Assembly (NCBI GenBank): GCA_023898465.1
Contig: CP060223.1
Span: 672,001-736,000, forward strand
Source: Candidatus Nomurabacteria bacterium
Lineage (GTDB): Bacteria > Patescibacteriota > Patescibacteriia > HK-STAS-PATE-3
Reading direction: 5' to 3'
Length of the DNA stretch: 64,000 nucleotides
Of the stretch, positions 4,492 to 60,180 are shown in pieces (position 1 is the stretch's first letter; every line of letters begins with the position of its first letter). Made by a program: the position numbers and the translations under genes. The notes under the pieces were generated by a model. It was not told the origin of the DNA. It saw only the letters and a list, made by a program, of their open reading frames with translations, and ran no database searches.

Positions 4492-6819
4492 TCAGTCTTT
4501 CGTCGCATCATTGATAATTTGATAGTGATTTGGTGCGATTTTTTCCATCATCTCAAATAATTCATTCACAATCTTTTTTGTCTCTGGGACGAGCGCTGGA
4601 TTAAAACCGGATCCAGTAATATGTGATTGATCATTTGTAAATTTGTATATGGCGTCTAACTTTTGTTCATCATACCCATTTTGTTTTAACTCCTCTATCT
4701 TTTTATATGATTTTTTTCCATTTGGAACACTGAACATTAAAAACGTATCCCAAACCTTCCTTGCTATATTAGGAATAGGATATGCCTTGGCGATAGAATC
4801 ATCTTGTTCATCGCGAAGATATTTAAGTAATTTAAAGAGATAGTGGTATTCACTTTCATATTCACAAAGCTCTTTATCCATTCTATCAATGTAGGCACAA
4901 CGAATGTTCGAGGGAAAATAATTTTTTATCATAAAGTACCCGGTATTATCTCTCCCGGCACCCCTCCGCCAATTGATCAAAAGTTTCAAGAAATCAAAAC
5001 TATGAGTAAAAATAAACACTTGCCCGCCGTCTTTTACTGCACCCTTCAAAAAACTAAAGGCTTGATAAAGAGAATTTGAATCGAGGCTAGATACAGGATC
5101 GTCAATGAGGATGATTCCATTTTGAAGATCAAAACTCTGATCTTCAAGATGCACCACAAAATATATAAAGGCAATAGCGGTCTTTTCACCTTCGCTTAAA
5201 TATTTTGCAGCAGAGTCATCGCGCATGATATTGTACCCCGAAACAACCTCTTTTTCATCACCATTCTCGCTAATAACCGTTTCGATGCGCGGAACAAATT
5301 TTAGCTCTCTGTGCCCCAAATAAGTTGCTATTTTTTCATTGATGACTTCACAGGCCTTATGTTTCGATGAGATTTTCGCTGTATTTTCTTCAATTCTTTT
5401 ATTTATCTCCTCAATTTCTTTTGTTAATGTGTCTATGTTTTTTGTTAGATTAGAAATATCTGATTCTATTTTTTTTATATCGTCAAAAATTGTACTCAGA
5501 TAGTGGAATTTTATTTTTTCCGCAGCCCTCTGTTTAACGGTATCAAAATCCGCAGTTCGTTTTTTGTGTTCATCAATAATGGCATTTACGCTATCAACAA
5601 CTTTATATAGACCGATACTGCTCAATTTTTTATCATGCTCTACCCTTTCGGTCGTCTTACTTTTCTTACTTTTAATTTTATCCGCAAGATTTGTAATATC
5701 GTTGACAAATTGTTGTTTAGCTAGTTCAAAATTAACTTTTTCTGTCTCTAGGTTTGTTTGTAGGTCTTTATAGAATCTCGTTTTCTCGGGAATTGTTATA
5801 TTTTGAATAACGGAGTAAAGCTTCCTTAATTTTTCAACAAGACTATCCAGGTCTTCTTTTAATTTTTTGTCTGCATTATTAAAATAAAGTGCCAATTGCT
5901 CTACTCTATCATTTGGAATATTTTGTAAACAGTATTCGCAAACATCTGAAGAATGTCTTTTGTGTAATTTTACCCCCTCTTCTACCCATTCTGAAATATC
6001 ATTATTTTCTGCAAGTCGATTAATAATCTCGGACTCAACTTTTTTGTTTAATACGTTTTCTGCCTCGGTATTAATGGAATTTACAATTTCAGAAATTTCG
6101 TAATTGTTTTGATCTATTTCGACTTTCGGAATAAATATTCTATCCAAAAATGGTAGAGATTCCTGCTTTAAAGAGATTAATATATTATTGAGCTCTACTT
6201 CTTCTAGCTCCACCTTCCTATTAATTTTAGAAAAATCACTTTCTGCCTGCGGCCTACGATAATCTCTTAATGCATTTCCTCCGATCGCAGCTCCTATGGT
6301 TTTTGCAATTTCGGTGAATTGACCATCGCGACTTGCTTTAAGCCGCTTATGGTCTTTTTTATAATCTGCCAATCTTGCAATTTTTCCTCTTTGCTTCGGA
6401 TCAGATGAATCGCCGTTGAGTAAAGTTCTATCTTTTTTAATTTGAACAGCGAGATCTTTATTTTCTTCACCGAGTAAAATTGAAATTGAATTTGCACGGC
6501 CTTCTATAAGCTCAATATTTCTTTCTATATAGTCTCTGTTGAAAACTCTGACTTTTGGAGGGAATGTGTCGTTTTGATCGTACCTATTTCCATTCTCGTC
6601 TTCAATTTCATACTCCAGATTTTCAATACTCACCCCGCTTAAAGCATCAAATAAACGGGAGAGTGTTGTTTTGCCGCTTCCATTCCAACCATACACTAAA
6701 TTAAGTTGCTTGAAATTTGGCAAGGTTGATCTAGATCGTATTCCTGAACCCCAGACATAATTAGAAAAAACAAGTCCGAGATTTTTTATTTTATTGATTC
6801 TTTGGATAGCATTACCCAT
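4492..6819 (-). CDS. RloC/PrrC-like ABC-type ATPase with Rad50-like CxxC zinc hook (putative anticodon nuclease / abortive-infection defence protein, AAA_13-like)
   Basis: 775 aa. Walker A LVYGWNGSGKTT near the N-terminus; about 450 aa of predicted coiled coil interrupted by CEYC (CxxC hook); ABC signature LSEGEK; Walker B/D-loop GIILIDDPVSSLD; H-loop FIFTHSFDF; about 170-aa C-terminal extra domain. The gene and its flanks (about 4270-7040) are markedly AT-rich (about 30-35% GC by eye) against about 50% neighbours. Confidence 0.6.
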   Translation of the reverse strand: MGNAIQRINKIKNLGLVFSNYVWGSGIRSRSTLPNFKQLNLVYGWNGSGKTTLSRLFDALSGVSIENLEYEIEDENGNRYDQNDTFPPKVRVFNRDYIERNIELIEGRANSISILLGEENKDLAVQIKKDRTLLNGDSSDPKQRGKIARLADYKKDHKRLKASRDGQFTEIAKTIGAAIGGNALRDYRRPQAESDFSKINRKVELEEVELNNILISLKQESLPFLDRIFIPKVEIDQNNYEISEIVNSINTEAENVLNKKVESEIINRLAENNDISEWVEEGVKLHKRHSSDVCEYCLQNIPNDRVEQLALYFNNADKKLKEDLDSLVEKLRKLYSVIQNITIPEKTRFYKDLQTNLETEKVNFELAKQQFVNDITNLADKIKSKKSKTTERVEHDKKLSSIGLYKVVDSVNAIIDEHKKRTADFDTVKQRAAEKIKFHYLSTIFDDIKKIESDISNLTKNIDTLTKEIEEINKRIEENTAKISSKHKACEVINEKIATYLGHRELKFVPRIETVISENGDEKEVVSGYNIMRDDSAAKYLSEGEKTAIAFIYFVVHLEDQSFDLQNGIILIDDPVSSLDSNSLYQAFSFLKGAVKDGGQVFIFTHSFDFLKLLINWRRGAGRDNTGYFMIKNYFPSNIRCAYIDRMDKELCEYESEYHYLFKLLKYLRDEQDDSIAKAYPIPNIARKVWDTFLMFSVPNGKKSYKKIEELKQNGYDEQKLDAIYKFTNDQSHITGSGFNPALVPETKKIVNELFEMMEKIAPNHYQIINDATKD

Positions 6820-7754: not shown

Positions 7755-8108
7755 ATGAGGTATCTTCTCTTCCTGATTGTCGCACTGGTGGCGCTTTCAG
7801 TTGCTAGCCCCGGAGTGAGCCTTGCGACGGACACAACGGTGGAGTACTCCTTCTACGGTCCGTCCGGAGACTACAAGATCGAACTCTTCGAGGTGGGGGC
7901 ACCCTATCCATCTCGACAAGACTACGTCTACGGCTATAGTGGCACTTTCACGTATCGCCGTACTTGGTCATCGATCGTCGCCTACCGATCCTACTTCATC
8001 CGCATCACTGACCTTAACTCGGGAGTCGCAAAGCAGACTGGATCCGTCTACGTTACCTACAATGGTGGGTACTATGCGTGGTCGACCTGCTACTGGAGCT
8101 CAATGTAA
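7755..8108 (+). CDS. Small secreted Tyr/Trp/Ser-rich hypothetical protein
   Basis: 117 aa, classic signal peptide MRYLLFLIVALVALSVASPGVSLA, mature part about 90 aa with 17 Tyr; followed by a terminator at 8137..8172. Confidence 0.6.
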   Translation: MRYLLFLIVALVALSVASPGVSLATDTTVEYSFYGPSGDYKIELFEVGAPYPSRQDYVYGYSGTFTYRRTWSSIVAYRSYFIRITDLNSGVAKQTGSVYVTYNGGYYAWSTCYWSSM

Positions 8109-8255: not shown

Positions 8256-8284
8256 TTGACAAAAACGCCTCATAGGTTTATATT
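8256..8284 (+). promoter_or_regulatory. Sigma70-like promoter (TTGACA-17nt-TATATT)
   Basis: TTGACA at 8256-8261, 17-nt spacer, TATATT at 8279-8284; about 55 nt upstream of the ATG at 8343 preceded by GGAGG. Confidence 0.4.
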
Positions 8285-8342
8285 GCGGTGTTCTCTAGTG
8301 GCTCTTTTCACACGTGCAAATCAGACAGAGACGGAGGCCTCT

Positions 8343-8618
8343 ATGTTGAGATCAGCTGAGGAAGTCAGCGCCGGAATCCTCGAACGAATACCGGAGTCTG
8401 CTCCGGAACGAGAAATCCTGCGACAACGCTTCGATGAAATCATGCGCGAGATCGGACCCGATCAGAACAGCCTACCCTTCACCTCACCTGAGATGCTGCA
8501 GGGTTACGACGGCTTGAGAATTCAAGGCTTCTGCAACGCTTGCACAGAAACGATCGGCGATCCCAGCGGAAGCGAATGGAAACTCGCGGTAGCAAGCTAC
8601 CTCAGTTCTGGATCCTGA
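8343..8618 (+). CDS. Hypothetical small protein
   Basis: ATG at 8343 preceded by GGAGGCC SD (inside longer track ORF 8256..8618); 91 aa, acidic, no family recognised. Confidence 0.45.
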   Translation: MLRSAEEVSAGILERIPESAPEREILRQRFDEIMREIGPDQNSLPFTSPEMLQGYDGLRIQGFCNACTETIGDPSGSEWKLAVASYLSSGS

Positions 8619-8645
8619 CCCCCAAACCCTTTCCTCGAGGTCGAC

Positions 8646-8840
8646 ATGACAACAAGGACCAGAGGACGGAGTCAGGTCAAAAGGCTCCTCACCCTCATAC
8701 AAGGTTCCTCATGCAGGGACCTAACCCCAGAAGATGATGGCTTCAATGCCCAAGTCCGGAGCCAGATGATGGAGCTCTGGGCAAAGGACCCCAAGCGTGC
8801 CAGACGACACATCATTCGGAGCAGGCCTGTCCGCTCTTGA
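8646..8840 (+). CDS. Hypothetical small basic protein
   Basis: 64-aa ORF immediately followed by a strong terminator (8852..8890); no homology recognised. Confidence 0.3.
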   Translation: MTTRTRGRSQVKRLLTLIQGSSCRDLTPEDDGFNAQVRSQMMELWAKDPKRARRHIIRSRPVRS

Positions 8841-8851
8841 ACCCATCCCTA

Positions 8852-8890
8852 AAGACTGTTGGATACGCTCCAGCAGTCTTTTTCTTTATT
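8852..8890 (+). terminator. Rho-independent terminator
   Basis: AAGACTG…CAGTCTT stem followed by TTTTTCTTTATT. Confidence 0.55.
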
Positions 8891-40407: not shown

Positions 40408-40959
40408 TCAGCCGAGCGTGGAGCTTCCGTGAAGCGTCTTCACGTCGATCTGCAGTGCCGCCGGGCCTCGAAAGTCACCGAGACGAAGTGACACTTCTTC
40501 TTGAACGTCGATCTGGTAGGAGCAGTCCATCTGGGTTTCATCACCCGCGTCCGGCAGGCGATCCCAGATGATGTACTGCGCCGTAGCATCCGGACCGGAT
40601 CGCGCAGTGACCTCCGGCACCGTGGTCCCATAGTGGCTGACGATGATGCTCTGAGTCCCCGGTTGTTCCGGCCGAGACGTCAGAACAGACTCGACCTGTA
40701 CCCACGGAGTCAGGGCGAAGTCGATCTGGACCTGATTGAAGCTGCTCTGATCCGAAGCCGGCAACAGAACAACCTCACCACCTGCGGAAGCGTAGAGACC
40801 GTCGGGAGCGATGGTGTTGTCGTCCATAGCGTACGTCGCCGCCATTTGAGACACACCCGGATCGTCCCCTCCGGCCGCGTAGATCGGCGGAGCGTGTGAA
40901 AGAGCGTAGCCGCACAGAACGATCAACGCGATCGCCCAGAGCGACAACTTCCTGAGCAT
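40408..40959 (-). CDS. Hypothetical secreted protein (signal peptide), GC-rich gene
   Basis: MLRKLSLWAIALIVLCGYALSHA signal peptide; GGAGG SD 7 nt upstream; no family recognised. Confidence 0.6.
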   Translation of the reverse strand: MLRKLSLWAIALIVLCGYALSHAPPIYAAGGDDPGVSQMAATYAMDDNTIAPDGLYASAGGEVVLLPASDQSSFNQVQIDFALTPWVQVESVLTSRPEQPGTQSIIVSHYGTTVPEVTARSGPDATAQYIIWDRLPDAGDETQMDCSYQIDVQEEVSLRLGDFRGPAALQIDVKTLHGSSTLG

Positions 40960-48495: not shown

Positions 48496-49056
48496 CTAGG
48501 TAGAAAGCGCACTACGAACACTTGCAAATAAGGAACTATAGTCAATTTCTTCGGGTTTAGTGGTGTCTATCTCAATCACACTTCCCTCAACTTGAAGCTG
48601 ATCAACTTGAGCATTTAAGAGTTCGACGGAAAATTCGTCGTAATTGGTCTGATCAACATGTCCCGGGTGTCGCTGTCCTGACTCAGCCCGATCTTTAAAG
48701 CGCTGGAGCAAAACCTTACCATCTGCTGTACAAATAATCTGGATAATTCGGGCGCCATAACGTTTCTGTAATTCTTGCATTTTAAGGTTATCATTTTCAG
48801 AACGAAAATTACTTTCAACAATACATGAGATACCTGCCTGAAGCATCTTCTCAAGCGTAAAGTACAGAATTGAATATGAAGCAATGCCCAACTTTCGTGA
48901 CCAGGCACGATCACTCCAACCTAAAGTATCAAATAACTGCTCCTTGATATCATCCCGAGCTATAAGAGGAAAATGAAATTCATCAACAATCTTTCGAGCT
49001 AAAGTTGTTTTTCCCGAGCCGGGCAAACCGGTAATGAGGATAAGAAGCGGCGACAT
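48496..49056 (-). CDS. P-loop NTPase / predicted kinase (AAA_33 / zeta-toxin-like fold)
   Basis: Start set at MSPLLILITGLPGSGKTT (ATG 49056); Walker A GLPGSGKT, Walker B-like …CIVESNF…; 186 aa. Confidence 0.6.
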   Translation of the reverse strand: MSPLLILITGLPGSGKTTLARKIVDEFHFPLIARDDIKEQLFDTLGWSDRAWSRKLGIASYSILYFTLEKMLQAGISCIVESNFRSENDNLKMQELQKRYGARIIQIICTADGKVLLQRFKDRAESGQRHPGHVDQTNYDEFSVELLNAQVDQLQVEGSVIEIDTTKPEEIDYSSLFASVRSALST

Positions 49057-49130
49057 AAAATCTCTAGTCTTGAATAGGAAGTATGGAAACTTGACTATAG
49101 CATTAATGCCTGACAAGAAAGAATGACTAC

Positions 49131-49159
49131 TTGACAAAATGTATAATATATGCTATACT
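49131..49159 (+). promoter_or_regulatory. Near-consensus sigma70 promoter with extended -10 (TTGACA-17-TGcTATACT)
   Basis: TTGACA 49131-49136; 17-nt AT-rich spacer; TG at 49151-52; TATACT 49154-49159; additional TTGAC-like repeats just upstream. Confidence 0.55.
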
Positions 49160-49205
49160 TATTATTGTACCTGAAACGTTCCTTCCCCTATCATAGGAGG
49201 ACTCC

Positions 49206-49358
49206 ATGCAGAAGAAGCTGCACTTCGTTGGCGAGCAACTGCTCGAAGTCGGTCGAGACATTCTCGGCCTTCCCCGTGGCTACGTCGTTGACGGCGAGCC
49301 TGGGGAACGACCGCCGACGCATCTGCGCACGGCACTCAAGGGCCTCTTCACCCGCTAG
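49206..49358 (+). CDS. Unannotated 50-aa ORF with strong SD (AGGAGG-6nt-ATG)
   Basis: Product MQKKLHFVGEQLLEVGRDILGLPRGYVVDGEPGERPPTHLRTALKGLFTR. Below the track's length cut-off; GC-rich; its own terminator at 49380..49416. Confidence 0.45.
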   Translation: MQKKLHFVGEQLLEVGRDILGLPRGYVVDGEPGERPPTHLRTALKGLFTR

Positions 49359-49379
49359 ACCTCGCACTTTCCTCAAACC

Positions 49380-49416
49380 GACGGCTGCACTACACGTGTG
49401 GCCGTCTTTCTTTATC
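49380..49416 (+). terminator. Rho-independent terminator after the 50-aa ORF
   Basis: GACGGC…GCCGTC stem followed by TTTCTTTATC. Confidence 0.45.
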
Positions 49417-49445
49417 AAAACACCGCCCAAGCTCAAGGCTTGGGC
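49414..49445 (-). terminator. Rho-independent terminator after ileS
   Basis: Minus: GCCCAAGC-CTTGA-GCTTGGGC followed by GGTGTTTTGAT; a third hairpin (49462..49490) lies between it and the ileS stop. Confidence 0.55.
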
Positions 49446-49508
49446 TACGTATTGTCTTTCTAGGCCTCGCAGCCAAGGCATTGAGCCTTGCTGCATTGTA
49501 TTCAAAGG

Positions 49509-52382
49509 CTACACCTTTAATACAAGCACATTTACTCCTTGCTCATCCAACTTCACTTCTTTCCCATTCTCTAGCTGATCAACTGCCTCCAGTTTCTCAG
49601 CCAGCACAGCAGACTTTAACTCATCAGCGTAACGATCAAATAAACCTCGCACAGTCCCATCCTCAGTGTGATACTGCACGCTGATTTTGTCAGTGCGGTC
49701 CAGACCCATCTTCTTCCGCTCGTCATTTATTTGTCGGGCCAGTTCGCGCACCCAACCAGCTTCCCGGAGCTCGTCTGTGATCGTGGTGTCCAGCGCCACC
49801 TGCAAACCATTATTATCCTTTTGCTTCCAGTCGTCGTCACTCGGTAAAGAGGATTTGTAAAGCACTTCGCGGACATTCACCTCATCTTGAATCAGCTCAG
49901 TAAACTCGGGTTGCAGTTGCTCACCTTTGACCACAACTTGACCCAAAGGCTGACGAACCTTTACTCCGGCTTCAGCCCGAAGCGCGTGAGCCGTCTCTAC
50001 AATCGCACGAACTTGCTGCATGGATTTCAAAACTGCCTCGTCAATGTCTGACTTTGTCTCAGGCCAACTTACCAAGTGCACGCTTTCCTCCGGCCCATCA
50101 ATGTCACTATAAAACGCGTCAGCTAACATAGGCGAGAAGGGCGCCAGTAAAACACAGACTCGCTCGAGTACAGTGTACAACATCGCCCGAGCAGCTTCTT
50201 TATCCGGACCATCTTCTCGGAAGCGATCCCGGCTCCGACGCACATACCACGTAGACAGCTCAGTAATAAAATCCGCGATGGCCCGACTGGCTGTAGTGAT
50301 ATCATAGGCTTCCAGTGAAGCAGTCACTTTCCCAGTCACTTGCTCCAAGTTAGCCATCACCCAACGGTCCAGCACATGCTGAGGCGACGCAGACGGTTCA
50401 GGCCGCTTGTCAGTATGCAGCGAATAAAAGGACACGACATTTGCGAAAATACGAAAGACTTTTTTCGACACTTCATCCGTCCCCTTCTTGTCATACAGTT
50501 TATAGTCTCCGGGTTGGTTCATGCTAAAGAATTGGAAACGGAGCACGTCCGCGCCAAACTCATCAATCACTTCCCACGGATCAACCACGTTCCCAATGTG
50601 CTTGGACATTTTCCGGCCTTTGGCATCAAGAATATGACTCAAGCAAATCACGTTCTTATACGGCGCTTCTTTGCCTAAAACCGTGGCCACAGCTAAGAGG
50701 GTATAAAACCAACCGCGAGTTTGATCTATGGCTTCGGAAATGTAATCAGCCGGATAGCTTACGCCTTCGTCAATGCGTTTTTTCCCGTCATCAGTGTGCG
50801 GATAATACCATTGGGCAAAAGGCATCGAGCCTGAGTCAAACCATACATCGCAAACATCTTGCACCCGGCGATATTCTTTCCCGTCTTTCACTAGCACCAC
50901 ATCGTCAACAAAAGGCCGATGCGGATCAAAATCATCACCAACTTGCTTCGGGTCTTTAGCGAGCTCGCGCAGTTCAGCAAATGAACCAATGCAGATCCGA
51001 TCACCATCTTCCGATTCCCAAATCGGCAACGGTGTGCCCCAATAACGTTCGCGAGAAAAAGCCCAGTCCTTTACTTCATTAAGCCACTCGCCCATTCGGC
51101 CTTCCTTAATATGCCCCGGCACCCAATTAATACTCTCGTTATTCTTTTTCAGTTCTTCGCGTAAGCTGGACATCCGTACAAACCAGGATGACTTCGCGTA
51201 ATAGAGCAAAGGGTTATGACAACGCCAGCAGTGCGGATACTCGTGTTCGTATTGCTCTTGCTGCAACAGCTGATTGTTTGATTGGAGATGCTCGAGAATC
51301 TTGTCCTCGGTTTCTTTAGCTTTGACATAGAGACCAGCTAAGTCCGGCACCTCGTCAGTGAAATGTCCGTCCGTGGTAACCGTATGATGCTTGGGCAGTC
51401 CGATTTCTGTGCCCAGGTTATAGTCATCTTCTCCGTACATGACTGCGGTGTGGACCACGCCAGTTCCATCTTCGGTGGTAACGAAGTTTGCCTCATATAT
51501 ATGATAGGCCTTGTCACTCTCAGTAAAGGTCTTAATTGAGAATAAGGGCTTATATGCTTTCCCAACTAAGTCAGACCCTTTCATGGTTTCCACCACTTCA
51601 GGTTGCTCATCAAAAATCTCTACGCGGTTTTTGGCTAAGATGTAATGCTCGTCTTGTACTTTTACTTTTACGTAGTCAATATCTGCACCAACTGCCAACG
51701 CTAAGTTACCAGGCAGCGTCCACGGTGTGGTGGTCCAAGCCAACACAAAAGTTCCTGGCTCATCTACTAACTCAAGCTTCATATACACCGATGTGTCTTT
51801 CACTGTCTCATAGCCTTGCGCAACTTCATGCGACGACAACGCAGTTCCACAGCGCGGACAGTGCGGCACAACTTTATGACCAGTGTAGAGTAATTCTTTT
51901 TCCCACATCTGCTGAATAATCCACCAAAGTGACTCGACATACTTTGGATCATAGGTAACGTAGGGATGTTCCAGGTCTAACCAAAAACCAATTCGTTGCG
52001 TCAGTCTCTCCCACTCCTCTTGGTATTTCCATACGCTTTTACGGCAGGCTTCATTGAACTTGGCAATTCCATAGGCCTCAATGTCTTTTTTGCTTTTCAG
52101 GCCTAAGTCTTTTTCTACCAGCAGCTCCACTGGCAGACCGTGTGTATCCCAACCAGCTTTCCGTTCCACGTAAAAACCCTGCATGGTTTTGAAACGCGGG
52201 ATAATATCTTTAAAAGCACGGGCCAGAATGTGATGAATGCCAGGTCGGCCATTCGCTGTGGGCGGGCCTTCGTAAAACACAAAACGCGGACCGTCTTTTG
52301 TCCGCTCTAAGGTTTTCTCAAACACTTTGTCTTTGGCCCAGCGTTCGAGGACTGCTTGTTCGCGTTCGGGAAAGGATTGCAT
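49509..52382 (-). CDS. ileS: Isoleucine--tRNA ligase, type 2 (eukaryote/archaea-like)
   Basis: 957 aa; …PPTANGRPGIHHILARAFKD… (HIGH-type) followed by GWDTHGLPVE, characteristic of IleRS rather than ValRS/LeuRS; KMSKS motif as KMSKHIGN; CP1 editing domain; zinc-binding Cys pairs. Confidence 0.8.
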   Translation of the reverse strand: MQSFPEREQAVLERWAKDKVFEKTLERTKDGPRFVFYEGPPTANGRPGIHHILARAFKDIIPRFKTMQGFYVERKAGWDTHGLPVELLVEKDLGLKSKKDIEAYGIAKFNEACRKSVWKYQEEWERLTQRIGFWLDLEHPYVTYDPKYVESLWWIIQQMWEKELLYTGHKVVPHCPRCGTALSSHEVAQGYETVKDTSVYMKLELVDEPGTFVLAWTTTPWTLPGNLALAVGADIDYVKVKVQDEHYILAKNRVEIFDEQPEVVETMKGSDLVGKAYKPLFSIKTFTESDKAYHIYEANFVTTEDGTGVVHTAVMYGEDDYNLGTEIGLPKHHTVTTDGHFTDEVPDLAGLYVKAKETEDKILEHLQSNNQLLQQEQYEHEYPHCWRCHNPLLYYAKSSWFVRMSSLREELKKNNESINWVPGHIKEGRMGEWLNEVKDWAFSRERYWGTPLPIWESEDGDRICIGSFAELRELAKDPKQVGDDFDPHRPFVDDVVLVKDGKEYRRVQDVCDVWFDSGSMPFAQWYYPHTDDGKKRIDEGVSYPADYISEAIDQTRGWFYTLLAVATVLGKEAPYKNVICLSHILDAKGRKMSKHIGNVVDPWEVIDEFGADVLRFQFFSMNQPGDYKLYDKKGTDEVSKKVFRIFANVVSFYSLHTDKRPEPSASPQHVLDRWVMANLEQVTGKVTASLEAYDITTASRAIADFITELSTWYVRRSRDRFREDGPDKEAARAMLYTVLERVCVLLAPFSPMLADAFYSDIDGPEESVHLVSWPETKSDIDEAVLKSMQQVRAIVETAHALRAEAGVKVRQPLGQVVVKGEQLQPEFTELIQDEVNVREVLYKSSLPSDDDWKQKDNNGLQVALDTTITDELREAGWVRELARQINDERKKMGLDRTDKISVQYHTEDGTVRGLFDRYADELKSAVLAEKLEAVDQLENGKEVKLDEQGVNVLVLKV

Positions 52383-52534
52383 GTCAGGAATTCAATTCAG
52401 TACGCCTACTATAGAAGATTCAGGCCGGCTTCGCAAGGCCTAAGCATTGACAAAAAGCCCAAATTGACATACATTGCCTTGTTCATTTTCGCACCTTCCA
52501 TCCTAAGGCTCTCGAGTAGAAAGGAAGCGAACTC

Positions 52535-53047
52535 GTGACAGATGCACCTCATCCCCATTCAGAATCCCCAGATGATCCTCACTTCTGGATCAAGTTCTAC
52601 CCCCACCTCTCAGGCGCAGTCCAGTCTGTCTTGGAGCGAGTCTACCAACTCGGTCTGCCGCAACACCCAGGCATCATCCACGTTCTGTTCGTACACCGTG
52701 GTCAAGACCAGCCTCAGATCACCACGTTTCCAGGGCGGCGCCAAATCGATCTTCGGGTCGGCATGACCCTTCCGCCTTGTCGGGACGCTTTGAAGTCCGA
52801 CCCAGACAGGAAGTGGGCTACCAACATGTGGGACGGCGACCCCGAAGGCAAAATCGGTGCCGCAGCTCTCCGCATCACTCCGGCTGGCCACATCCTCGGT
52901 ATCGTAGGCGAGCATCTGATTCTTGAACACGCGCTGGCCATTCTCTACCTGGCGCTGGCTCGCAGCGGCTTGATCAGCGCTGACGAACTGACCAAGCTCG
53001 AAGTCGACGGCAACCTTACCTACATGGTCTTGCGCGCTCGTGACTAG
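52535..53047 (+). CDS. Hypothetical protein (paralog A of a tandem pair), GTG start
   Basis: 170 aa; GTG at 52535 with AAGGAAG SD; possible TTGACA-17-TACATT promoter at about 52447-52475; GC-rich. Confidence 0.5.
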   Translation: MTDAPHPHSESPDDPHFWIKFYPHLSGAVQSVLERVYQLGLPQHPGIIHVLFVHRGQDQPQITTFPGRRQIDLRVGMTLPPCRDALKSDPDRKWATNMWDGDPEGKIGAAALRITPAGHILGIVGEHLILEHALAILYLALARSGLISADELTKLEVDGNLTYMVLRARD

Positions 53048-53209
53048 CACAAATCCTCCCAACAAGACTCCTCATGCCCTGGGGAGTCTTTCTTTATCCT
53101 CGACGGACTTCGTATATGTAATAAATTGACACCTGCACTACAAGCGCTATACTGCGACCACACTTTTTGCACCTTCCTACAAACCGCGCCTGAAGAAACC
53201 AAGGAGTAC

Positions 53210-53719
53210 CGGATGAAATCTGAAGGAAGCGCTGGTCTTTGGCGGCAACTTACTCCGGAGCTGCACAAGGCTATCGCGAGTATTCACATCTATGCTGAGG
53301 ATCGTGATAGCAGCGGACCTAAGCCTGAAGCATGCCTTCTTGGACTGTCCATAGATGGCACCGTAGTGTACGCTCATGCCTGGCCACCCCGTGGTCCCAT
53401 CTCGCCGAACATGACTACGCACCTCAATACTCTGTGCGCCGTCCTGGCAAGGCGTCGCAGTAAAGGTTTCGCAATCGAAGCGGTTGACGACCGCATCGAT
53501 GCCTACACCGTGGCCGCTGCAGTGCGCATCGCTGGCACCAGCATGATCATCGGCTGCATCGGCAAGAACTTCTATCCCGAGGGTGGGCTGACTGTCCTCC
53601 TCACCGGAATGAAGAACGCGGGGATCATCGATGCGGAGACAGCAAGTCAAATCGCCACACAAGCGAAGTGCCGCTGGTACTACGAGATCAACGAGCTTCC
53701 AATCCCGCGAAGGATATAG
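53210..53719 (+). CDS. Hypothetical protein (paralog B of the tandem pair)
   Basis: Start at MKSEGSAGL (ATG 53210) with AAGGAG SD; the C-terminal about 90 aa align by eye to paralog A (AAALRITPAGHILGIVGEH ~ AAAVRIAGTSMIIGCIGKN; LAILYLALARSGLISADELTKL ~ LTVLLTGMKNAGIIDAETASQI). Confidence 0.5.
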   Translation, partial: RMKSEGSAGLWRQLTPELHKAIASIHIYAEDRDSSGPKPEACLLGLSIDGTVVYAHAWPPRGPISPNMTTHLNTLCAVLARRRSKGFAIEAVDDRIDAYTVAAAVRIAGTSMIIGCIGKNFYPEGGLTVLLTGMKNAGIIDAETASQIATQAKCRWYYEINELPIPRRI

Positions 53720-53760
53720 GAAGCACCTAAAGACTCCTCAACTCTGAGGGGTCTTTCTCT

Positions 53761-54900
53761 TTATTGCGCTCGGCGAATTTTTTCGTACACTGCAATTGTT
53801 CGCAGAGCTACTTTATCCCAACTGAAACGTCGCGCTTGCTCTAAACCTTGCTGACTTAAACGCTGGCGCAGATTATCGTCAAAGGCGAGTCGAGCTAAGC
53901 CATTGGCGATTGCATTCACTTCCTCGGGATCAACCAGATAGGCTGCCCCGCCGGTGATTTCTGGAAGCGAGGAAATATCGCTGGTCAAAACTGGAGTCCC
54001 CAACGCCATGGCCTCGATGACTGGCAAACCAAAACCTTCATAGAGTGAAGGAAACACAAAGGCTCGCGCGTGACGAATGAGCTCCAGTTTTTCATTCTTA
54101 CTAATGTAGCCAAGGTAATGCACATTGTCCTGAATTCCCTCTTGCTCGAGCGCGGCAAACACCTCGGCCGACTGCCAACCCTTTTTCCCAGCTAAGACAA
54201 GTGGAATGTTATGGAAGCGCACATCTTGGCGAAGGGCTTGTGCATAGGCACGAATGAGACGCGGCAAATTTTTTCGTGGCTCTAGGGTACCGACAAAGCA
54301 GAGGTAGTCGTCAGGCAGATTGAAACGTTCACGCGGATCAGGTTGTGGCTCCCCCGGATTAGGTCGGACATCAACTCCTTCATAAATGACACTGATCTTT
54401 TCACTTGGGACTTTAAAGAGCTCACGGAGATCCTCAGCCGTGCTCTCTGATACCGCAATAATTCGCTCAGCTCGAGTCAGTGATTTGGGAACCAGCAGCT
54501 TGGTAGAAAAAATTTGCCGCGGAAACCACGAGGGGTTTTTGTAAATCGCTAAGTCGTGAATAGTCACTACAGCTGGGCCGGTATACCCGAGTGGAATAAT
54601 ATTAGCCGGTGCGTGAAAAAGATCTAGGCGCTCCGTTTGCATTGCCCGAGCAGTTAAAACATGTGAATACGCAAAAGGCAAATAGCGACGACGCTCGGAA
54701 AATGGAAAATACTTTGGGGTCGCATTGTCGCGCCGGAAAGGACGTAAATCCTTCATGCTGGAGTCAAAAAACAGGACATACTCGTTCCGCTTGTCCTGCT
54801 GCAGCAAGTTCTTAATCAAAAAATAGGTGTAGTGGCCTACCCCGGCACCCTCGCCAACGCTTGGGTTAAGGATTGTGCGGCAGTCAATTCCGATGCGCAT
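53761..54900 (-). CDS. GT4-family glycosyltransferase (GT-B fold)
   Basis: 379 aa; C-terminal …EGFGLPVIEAMALGTPVLTSD… E-x7-E type motif. Confidence 0.85.
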   Translation of the reverse strand: MRIGIDCRTILNPSVGEGAGVGHYTYFLIKNLLQQDKRNEYVLFFDSSMKDLRPFRRDNATPKYFPFSERRRYLPFAYSHVLTARAMQTERLDLFHAPANIIPLGYTGPAVVTIHDLAIYKNPSWFPRQIFSTKLLVPKSLTRAERIIAVSESTAEDLRELFKVPSEKISVIYEGVDVRPNPGEPQPDPRERFNLPDDYLCFVGTLEPRKNLPRLIRAYAQALRQDVRFHNIPLVLAGKKGWQSAEVFAALEQEGIQDNVHYLGYISKNEKLELIRHARAFVFPSLYEGFGLPVIEAMALGTPVLTSDISSLPEITGGAAYLVDPEEVNAIANGLARLAFDDNLRQRLSQQGLEQARRFSWDKVALRTIAVYEKIRRAQ

Positions 54901-59283: not shown

Positions 59284-59730
59284 ATGCCAACACTCGCCGT
59301 CAACAAATCTGTGGGCTTCAGCTTCGAAATTCAAGAGAAATTCGAGGCTGGTATTGCATTGTCTGGCCCAGAGGTAAAGGCGGCCAAGCAAGGCAACATC
59401 AGCTTGAAAGGAAGCTACATCACTATCCGGCCTGATGGCGCTTGGCTCATTGGCTGCTATATCTCCCCTTATAAGCCGGCGCAAGCTACCCAGCAAGGCT
59501 ATACCCCGACCCGAGATCGCCACCTCTTACTCCGTCAGAGCGAACTCAGCCGATTAGTGGGTGCTGCCAGCGCAAAAGGCTTGACAGTACTGCCTATTTC
59601 CTTTTATACTAAAGGAGGCTTGATAAAGGTTGAAGTCGCTATTGCTAAAGGCAAAAAAAAGGCAGACAAGCGGGAAAGCATTAAAAAACGTGATATTGAG
59701 CGGCGCATCCGCCAATCAGTCCATCACTAA
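59284..59730 (+). CDS. smpB: SsrA-binding protein
   Basis: MPTLAVNKSVGFSFEIQEKFEAGIALSGPEVKAAKQGNISLKGSYI… canonical SmpB; the track ORF starts 171 nt too early; TATACT -10-like element 15 nt upstream of ATG. Confidence 0.9.
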   Translation: MPTLAVNKSVGFSFEIQEKFEAGIALSGPEVKAAKQGNISLKGSYITIRPDGAWLIGCYISPYKPAQATQQGYTPTRDRHLLLRQSELSRLVGAASAKGLTVLPISFYTKGGLIKVEVAIAKGKKKADKRESIKKRDIERRIRQSVHH

Positions 59731-59777: not shown

Positions 59778-60180
59778 GGGGGATGCCCAATAATCGATCG
59801 ATCGTTCACAATCTGTGCAGGCAAGCCGGTCACCCAGGTCTCCCGTAACAGGCCCTGGAAAAAGCAAGTGTCAATTCATTTGCCAGCAAGGTAAAGAACT
59901 CCATTGCTAACGCAATGCAGTCACTCCAACTTGCGCCAGTTGTCGCGTAAAAACCGATAACCATCTATGCTTACGATGTCCTGAGTTGTTCGCATGGGTG
60001 CTACACTTATCAGGATAGGAACCTACCTTGTCTCGGGTTTGTTCCGAACTATTGAGACTAGGAAATAAATGATTTCGTTCGTTTCATACATTTGTTTCTG
60101 AAGCATTAAAGCGAACTAGGCTTGTAGAATGTACACGATTGTACGATGAGACGCGGGCGTGATACCCGCCATCTCCACCA
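59778..60180 (+). ncRNA. ssrA: tmRNA (ssrA), predicted
   Basis: About 400-nt ORF-free gap right after smpB. 5' GGGGAUG pairs with 3' CAUCUCC-A-CCA, giving a 7-bp acceptor stem with G3:U wobble (the Ala identity element) and encoded CCA. T-arm GCGGG-CGUGAUA-CCCGC sits just before it (same stem as E. coli, deviant loop). 5' AUCGAUCGUUCACAAUC is complementary to 3' GAUUGUACGAU (P2). Perfect 8-bp terminator hairpin immediately follows at 60182-60207. Candidate tag frame ends …LAPVVA-UAA. Confidence 0.6.

Follow-up and report, generated by a model that had tools for sequence, protein, structure and literature searches.

A self-contained expression cassette between ileS and recO of a Candidatus Nomurabacteria chromosome as a candidate gene for an orphan small protein

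Morons, described in lambdoid prophages, are autonomous insertions made of a promoter, an open reading frame (ORF) and a terminator. In the Patescibacteria, species-level lineage-specific unknown genes are common (45,788 of 54,343 such clusters; PMC9132574); lineage-specific orphans are the rule there, so that one more of them is not a new kind of gene. Here we analysed 64,000 nt of the chromosome of a Candidatus Nomurabacteria bacterium (GCA_023898465.1, contig CP060223.1, positions 672,001-736,000, forward strand; hereafter the window, to which all coordinates refer) and, within it, a stretch located between ileS and recO that we call cassette A (49131-49416, + strand). It comprises a promoter, a ribosome-binding site, a 50-codon ORF and a terminator, and is the smallest of four cassettes (A to D) found in the window. 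We consider it somewhat probable, from its sequence signals, that cassette A, the smallest of a local set of moron-like accessory cassettes, is a real gene that is expressed autonomously and encodes an orphan protein of 50 residues. The one feature that deserves follow-up is the architecture common to the four. The ORF had been taken as unannotated by the initial annotation, but NCBI lists it as a hypothetical protein (H6760_03575 / USN53231.1) in a Candidatus Nomurabacteria metagenome-assembled genome, on a 1.08-Mb contig.

The promoter of cassette A consists of the −35 hexamer TTGACA (49131-49136) and, after a 17-nt spacer, the extended −10 element TGcTATACT (49151-49159), as the initial annotation had described. 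With 11 of 12 consensus positions and the TG extension, it is the top sigma-70 match of the window, and a second perfect extended −10, TGTATAAT, can be read on the same strand at 49140-49147. Sites matching at least 11 of 12 positions were found five times in the window against 0.62 ± 0.73 times in dinucleotide shuffles (8-fold enriched), and those with TG twice against 0.05 times; sites of at least 11/12 and of 10/12 sit upstream of cassettes C and D, ssrA, clpB and tRNA-Asp. Since these sites are enriched and placed where promoters are expected, the sigma-70 consensus is meaningful in this organism. The hexamer TATACT is also the −10 box upstream of tRNA-Asp, ssrA and cassette C. Transcription from the extended −10 promoter of cassette A would start at ~49166 and produce a 5′ leader of ~40 nt (49166-49205, +), in which a CCTTCC element (49181-49186) resembling an anti-Shine-Dalgarno (anti-SD) sequence precedes the Shine-Dalgarno (SD) sequence AGGAGG (49195-49200) and the ATG start codon (49206). 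The leader, AGGAGG and the ATG had been noticed initially, with a spacer of 6 nt between AGGAGG and ATG that in our count is 5 nt, a spacing suited to a functional ribosome-binding site. Among the 36 ORF starts of the window, whose assignments were not curated, AGGAGG is found within 21 nt upstream of only two, the ORF of cassette A and a GC-rich orphan at 40959. The minimum-free-energy hairpin of the leader pairs CCTTCC with AGGAGG, leaving the SD bases with a predicted unpaired probability of 0-0.5. The anti-SD-like element reads GTTCCTTCC in cassette A, and the leaders of B and C have CACCTTCC. Folding of CCUUCC onto AGGAGG may thus throttle translation, which would give the leader a regulatory role.

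At the other end, the hairpin and T-run announced for 49380-49416 are present: an 11-bp hairpin (7 GC pairs; 49380-49406, +) is followed by TTTCTTTATC and makes up an intrinsic terminator, with the class signature GTCTTTCTTTAT at 49404-49415. The gap between stop codon and terminator is 22 nt, similar to that of the sister cassettes. Taken together, the elements of cassette A are beyond chance.

The 50-codon ORF, MQKKLHFVGEQLLEVGRDILGLPRGYVVDGEPGERPPTHLRTALKGLFTR (49206-49358, +; TAG stop at 49356-49358), bears out the translation initially quoted, and its tryptic peptides include LHFVGEQLLEVGR, DILGLPR, GYVVDGEPGER and PPTHLR. It has the compositional marks of a coding sequence: GC contents at the first, second and third codon positions (GC1, GC2 and GC3) are 0.76, 0.39 and 0.73, with a significant three-base periodicity (chi-square p=1.3e-4). 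When codons are scored by host usage, the ATG frame ranks first of six (−5.84, for a host mean of −5.71, sd 0.11), followed by the antisense frame (−6.0) and the remaining four (−6.5 to −6.8). It is also the best of six under a codon model built from the GC3-rich ORFs of the sister cassettes, with +0.23 bits per codon; in this model the leave-one-out mean for true in-frame windows is 0.15 ± 0.12. Both periodicity and codon fit extend over the whole ORF. Furthermore, GC content reaches its window maximum in the ORF (0.647 over 150 nt, for a mean of 0.485), and the base composition of cassette A is unlike that of both flanking genes, as is expected of a moron: GC and GC3 are 0.63 and 0.73 for the ORF, 0.49 and 0.51 for ileS, and 0.42 and 0.35 for the divergent kinase gene on the other side. 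Structure prediction from the single sequence (AlphaFold2) yields two helices (residues 8-20 and 38-49), which a Gly/Pro-rich loop would connect in the predicted peptide.

If these signals are used as they read, ribosomes would begin at the ATG at 49206 and finish at the TAG ending at 49358, the 11-bp hairpin and T-run would end the transcript, giving an mRNA of ~250 nt for a soluble protein of 50 residues, and two further hairpins that belong to the convergent ileS gene would keep both units from reading through into each other. Transcription, translation, SD occlusion and any function are what we infer here; the signals themselves, the periodicity, the frame preference, the terminator signature and, as described below, the evolution of cassettes B and C in the manner of proteins and the absence of cassette A from the same junction of a relative are observed.

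Cassette A is not alone in its design. Cassette B (52447-53098, +) has the promoter TTGACA-17-TACATT, a 170-aa orphan ORF (52535-53047) and a terminator with GTCTTTCTTTATC; cassette C (53126-53764, +) has TTGACA-16-TATACT, a 168-aa orphan ORF (53213-53719) and a terminator with GTCTTTCTCTTTAT; and cassette D (8256-8889, +) has TTGACA-17-TATATT, two orphan ORFs (8343-8618 and 8646-8840) and a terminator with GTCTTTTTCTTTAT. The four have in common near-consensus promoters, SD-type ribosome sites, GC3-rich orphan ORFs and the terminator signature, and all lie on the + strand among housekeeping genes that are mostly on the − strand. The signature, GTCTTT(N0-2)CTTTAT, has exactly four matches in the 64 kb (at 8876, 49404, 53086 and 53751, all +) against 0.04 expected. 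All four are at the 3′ ends of cassettes A to D, and the other strong terminators of the window do not carry it. Indeed, the terminators of the four cassettes can be aligned, and the stems of B, C and D start with AAAGACT and finish with AGTCTTT or GGTCTTT. The ORFs of B, C and D match no Pfam family; the GC3 of the orphans of B to D is 0.58-0.66, compared with 0.73 for A and ~0.5 for host genes. The initial annotation had seen in this locus a compact housekeeping region. By gene content the neighbours of cassette A are ileS, recO, tgt, clpB and argS, and the region is not purely of this kind, with similar orphan cassettes lying across ileS.

Two of the sister cassettes could be followed in L012, a relative recovered from a different sample (84.6% identical in nucleotides), which retains the end of B and the whole of C. 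The ORF of C is 91% identical there (88% in amino acids), with differences distributed as 10/9/27 over the codon positions and a ratio of non-synonymous to synonymous substitution rates (dN/dS) of 0.245, and the + frame of B gives a dN/dS of 0.225. A 146-aa ORF on the − strand (52610-53050), which the Logan and ENA gene callers choose over B, gains stop codons in L012; since this alternative is broken in the relative, the + strand ORF is the real gene of cassette B. The −10 box and leader of C (53148-53190, TATACTGCGACCACACTTTTTGCACCTTCCTACAAACC) are 100% identical in L012 and contain the same anti-SD-like octamer that is found in the leader of B, which suggests that the leader of C is a constrained regulatory element. 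B and C are weak paralogues (BLASTP E=1e-6) and lie between a GT4 glycosyltransferase gene and ileS. In L008, a relative with 63% identity in IleS, the GT4 gene abuts ileS directly and both cassettes are absent, so B and C are lineage-specific insertions. From the purifying selection on B and C and the conserved leader of C, the class would appear to consist of genuine protein genes with constrained leaders.

Comparative support of this type does not extend to cassette A itself. Its nearest available relative, L013, was reached via the 90% cluster of recO, with recO genes that are 86.6% identical in nucleotides. At the junction of L013 the ileS 3′ hairpins, in a match that covers 49413-49491 of the window, lie at a distance of ~140 nt from the start codon of recO. 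The only other piece common to both intergenic regions is the 12-mer TTGACTATAGCA (49091-49102), which overlaps a likely extended −10 element, TGCTATAGT (49093-49101, −), of the divergent kinase-recO operon; in L013 the motif TGCTATAGTCAA from this region is separated by 6 nt from the start of recO. The kinase gene contains this motif in inverted orientation, CTATAGTCAATTT (48536-48548), within its 3′ end. We considered whether flanking repeats could be insertion scars and rejected it: there is a single 13-nt inverted repeat around a CTATAG palindrome (48536-48548 and 49088-49100), and such repeats are expected ~0.5 times by chance in the region, although the one found overlaps the conserved 12-mer. 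Approaching synteny through IleS led no closer, as the GTDB scan reached relatives of just 40-53% identity and the nearest IleS in the protein database are 63-65% identical, with different genes after ileS.

Database searches did not provide a family for the peptide either. There were zero matches in Pfam, PHROGs, NCBIfam and PADLOC (the Pfam search also covered the main alternative frames, and the PHROGs search the 104-aa antisense ORF), no peptide match in viral contigs and no DNA similarity in plasmids or phages. In the 90% clusters, every ORF called in the region of cassette A is a singleton without diverged members. Two phmmer matches were discarded as repeat junk, their scores being summed over many weak repeat matches, and an FtsA fragment from the JGI metagenome scan that shares PRGYVVDGEPG was judged to be a by-product of 8-mer seeding, with no Pfam support as FtsA. 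We likewise rejected the possibility that the peptide is a truncated paralogue of B or C, as BLASTP yields no alignment with A at E values up to 100; similarity of A to either is undetectable in any alignment. The top match in the PDB is the N-terminal region of TrfB/KorA (5CLV, 2N5G) and is not significant (E=0.27). Here 'QLLEVGRDILGLPRGYVVDGEP' is aligned with 'QGLEVGQQTIEIARGVLVDGKP', but the peptide stops before a helix-turn-helix would be complete and has no Pfam match.

Several of these observations weigh against a small-protein gene and have to be set beside the signals in its favour. The peptide retrieves only itself from 5.8 billion clustered proteins in a word-indexed search, and an exhaustive phmmer search of 1.84 billion representatives found no homologue; the search for relatives of the peptide that the initial annotation had proposed thus came back empty from all collections. 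Its proposed test of reading-frame conservation in relatives failed, the junction of L013 lacking both cassette A and the gene for the 186-aa kinase. The four available copies of cassette A are all identical, leaving zero population variation to use. A 50-codon open frame is not significant by itself in DNA of 63% GC, and the antisense frame, which by symmetry shares the periodicity of the ATG frame, scores just somewhat lower. The confidence of the AlphaFold2 model is low (predicted local distance difference test, pLDDT, 68.8; predicted template modelling score, pTM, 0.37), too low to warrant a fold search. Finally, the RNA is unusually well folded: the transcript has a folding z of −3.8, with no shuffle as good, and the minimum free energy of the ORF, −66.3 kcal/mol, is below that of 98% of synonymous-codon permutations (z=−2.3). 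Of the real small protein proposed initially, what stands is therefore intrinsic (expression signals, periodicity, codon fit and class signature) and what falls is conservation. As the cassette is missing at the orthologous junction of the nearest available relative, purifying selection on A cannot be shown. As the whole cassette is missing there and no homologue was found in any collection searched, A reads as a very young, strain- or species-specific gene and not as a conserved small protein. Its presence or absence at the same junction of close relatives, whether by gain or by loss, is the behaviour of a moron.

The sequence itself is solid. The segment 49040-49600 is found with 100% identity in three further assemblies (SRR23493594, ERZ28655665 and ERZ27309337), and a contig of SRR12358675 is identical to the window over 12 kb, so that an assembly artefact as the origin of cassette A is ruled out by identical independent assemblies. 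The reading of the sequence is less settled, as gene callers pick three different ORFs over this DNA, the other choices being a 142-aa ORF on the + strand or a 96-aa ORF on the − strand. In total, four further ORFs of 44-142 aa overlap the stretch, and the disagreement shows that ORF calling is ambiguous in this patch of 63% GC.

The strong folding raises the possibility that cassette A produces a structured small RNA (sRNA) of ~250 nt, or a dual-function RNA, whose GC-rich hairpins are functional and in which the ORF is incidental or secondary. The z of the ORF is more extreme than that of all 13 control windows taken from the sister ORFs (mean −0.5, minimum −1.83), GC content peaks here within the window, tRNA-Asp and ssrA have promoters similar to that of cassette A, and the predicted fold leaves the SD mostly paired. 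The folding of the ORF is modest evidence that keeps such a role alive. On the other hand, a non-coding RNA would not be expected to show the three-base GC periodicity or a codon fit specific to one frame, a perfect SD stands at ideal spacing from an ATG, and the sister cassettes, which carry the same signals, are genes for proteins. Rfam 15, the scan suggested at the outset and one whose families include 6S, SRP, RNase P, riboswitches and T-box, finds at gathering thresholds only the transfer-messenger RNA (tmRNA) and tRNA-Asp in the window and nothing in the region of A; with E values up to 10 on 49050-49560 it returns suhB/mmgR alone, at 12 bits against a gathering threshold of 41 (E=9.6), and on the terminator only. 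The RNA of A does not form a better duplex with the 5′ region of the kinase than shuffles do (p=0.16), and it has no relatives in which covariation could be tested. A known sRNA family is thus discarded, and we regard a novel sRNA or dual-function RNA as rather unlikely. The leader peptide that had been suggested together with the sRNA, or a transcription attenuator, was rejected: past the terminator there is no gene in the same orientation, the convergent ileS comes next, and the + strand has no gene before 52535.

Alternatively, cassette A could be neutral, having arisen recently or being in decay: a proto-gene, or what is left of a larger accessory gene, perhaps expressed but without a selected function. 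Its status as a singleton without homologues, its absence at the orthologous junction of L013 in spite of the similarity of the recO genes, an ORF far shorter than the 168-170 aa of B and C, and the abundance of lineage-specific unknown genes in Patescibacteria (PMC9132574) all fit such an origin. Against it, promoter, SD, ATG and stop-to-terminator spacing are all intact and near-optimal, periodicity and codon fit along the full ORF are unexpected for random or long-decayed sequence, and a remnant would be hard to reconcile with the undetectable similarity to B or C. We consider a neutral cassette unlikely, without being far-fetched. Much less credible is that the peptide is the antitoxin or regulator partner of the divergent P-loop kinase (AAA_33 family; 186 aa, 48496-49056, −), both having been gained or lost as one zeta/epsilon-like module. 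The joint absence of kinase and cassette from the L013 junction and a Pfam match of the kinase to Zeta_toxin (E=1e-10) speak in its favour. However, AAA_33 is a better match (E=4e-18), the kinase matches PDB 2RHM, a stand-alone 'putative kinase', over its full length (E=6e-41), and PADLOC gives only P-loop-level matches. The two genes are divergent and not co-transcribed, their compositions are opposite (GC3 of 0.35 for the kinase against 0.73 for ORF A), and the conserved 12-mer between them implies two separate events. In addition, their RNAs show no significant complementarity (p=0.16) and the peptide matches no antitoxin or defence family. A functional link between them is unlikely because the kinase is not a clear zeta toxin and for these reasons of orientation, composition, position of the 12-mer and RNA pairing, and we judge a common module very improbable.

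Coming back to the small-protein gene, its 3′ side is bordered by the end of ileS, whose stop codon lies at 49509-49511. The three consecutive strong hairpins that the initial annotation had described as shared with the ileS 3′ end do exist, with folding z values of −6.2 (+ strand) and −3.1 (− strand) for the region; the first is the terminator of cassette A itself and the second is that of ileS. The latter (49425-49445, −) is followed by GGTGTTTTGA on the − strand and is kept in L013. The third hairpin (49469-49494, −) folds directly past the ileS stop, and its stem is kept in L013 via two compensatory changes, C-G to A-T and G-C to A-T, which were read by eye from the alignment. As it lacks a T-run, this hairpin may serve to stabilise or process the 3′ untranslated region rather than to terminate transcription. 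The ileS frame stays open for ~105 codons past its TAG stop (49191-49511, −), as the exact antisense frame of ORF A. A C-terminal extension of IleS or readthrough was rejected, since DUF5915 is matched up to profile position 194 of 195 at residue 956 of 957, and since L013 has a 2-nt frame-breaking insertion or deletion in this 3′ region and misses the remainder. With the IleS domain complete at the stop and the frame broken in the relative, the open frame is best read as a coincidence of GC-rich DNA.

Elsewhere in the window, a tmRNA at 59779-60180 is matched by Rfam with 74 bits and was missed by ARAGORN; an 11/12 promoter, TTGACA-18-TATACT (59581-59610), precedes it by ~170 nt and falls within the 3′ end of smpB. 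A 4-base SD core is found within 21 nt upstream of 13 of the 36 ORF starts, and most housekeeping genes are without it. Of seven orphan ORFs rich in GC3, six are preceded by SD-type purine-rich sites: those of A, B and C, two out of three in the D region, and 40408-40959. The last of these (−) and 7755-8108 (+) are further GC3-rich orphan ORFs, with GC3 of 0.71 and 0.66 and signal-peptide-like N-termini (MLRKLSLWAIAL... and MRYLLFLIVALVALSVASPG..., respectively); their products are probably secreted lineage-specific proteins. At the opposite end of composition, the GC3 of the kinase (0.35) is among the two lowest in the window, and a 775-aa ORF (4492-6819, −) has a GC of 0.34 and a GC3 of 0.29, for a window mean of 0.485, and may be another compositionally foreign gene.

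If the peptide of cassette A is made, it would be a strongly expressed, strain-specific small protein in a genome of ~1 Mb, in which every retained gene likely counts, for example in host attachment, interference or stress response. As it stands, the ORF has good signals, an existing annotation as a hypothetical protein and no comparative support, which makes it a candidate and not a discovery. A broader proposal, which we put forward as speculative and doubtful, is that A to D represent an undescribed mobile or duplicative kind of expression cassette in Patescibacteria chromosomes, with A as the newest and smallest. Such a cassette would be composed of a stereotyped near-consensus promoter, an anti-SD-like leader, an SD site, one or more GC3-rich orphan ORFs and a GAC...GTCTTT-CTTTAT terminator, would insert opposite to housekeeping operons and would turn over between close relatives. 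If true, cassette A would be a window on how bacteria of the candidate phyla radiation (CPR) acquire or invent new small proteins. The common style of promoter, leader and terminator may mark the way in which this lineage packages newly gained genes, and the terminator signature is a simple handle for finding such cassettes genome-wide.

Compared with the systems described so far, cassette A resembles a moron in being self-contained, with its own strong promoter and its own intrinsic terminator, in differing in composition from its neighbours, in being absent from a close relative at the same junction and in encoding a putative small protein. Unlike a moron, it is located between ileS and recO of a Patescibacteria chromosome and not in a prophage, with no PHROG matches and no viral or phage relatives to give it a phage context, and the stereotyped terminator of A to D is not a defining moron feature. 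With trans-acting bacterial sRNA genes it shares a stand-alone, intergenic, GC-rich and well-folded unit of ~250 nt with a strong promoter and terminator; it differs from them in its perfect SD-ATG arrangement and coding periodicity, and in having no Rfam match and no homologues. Like the Patescibacteria unknowns of the AGNOSTOS survey (PMC9132574), the ORF is an orphan, taxonomically restricted and unannotatable, in a CPR genome, and it stands apart from them as a singleton (cluster size 1) whose length is unusually small and whose expression signals are complete to an unusual degree.

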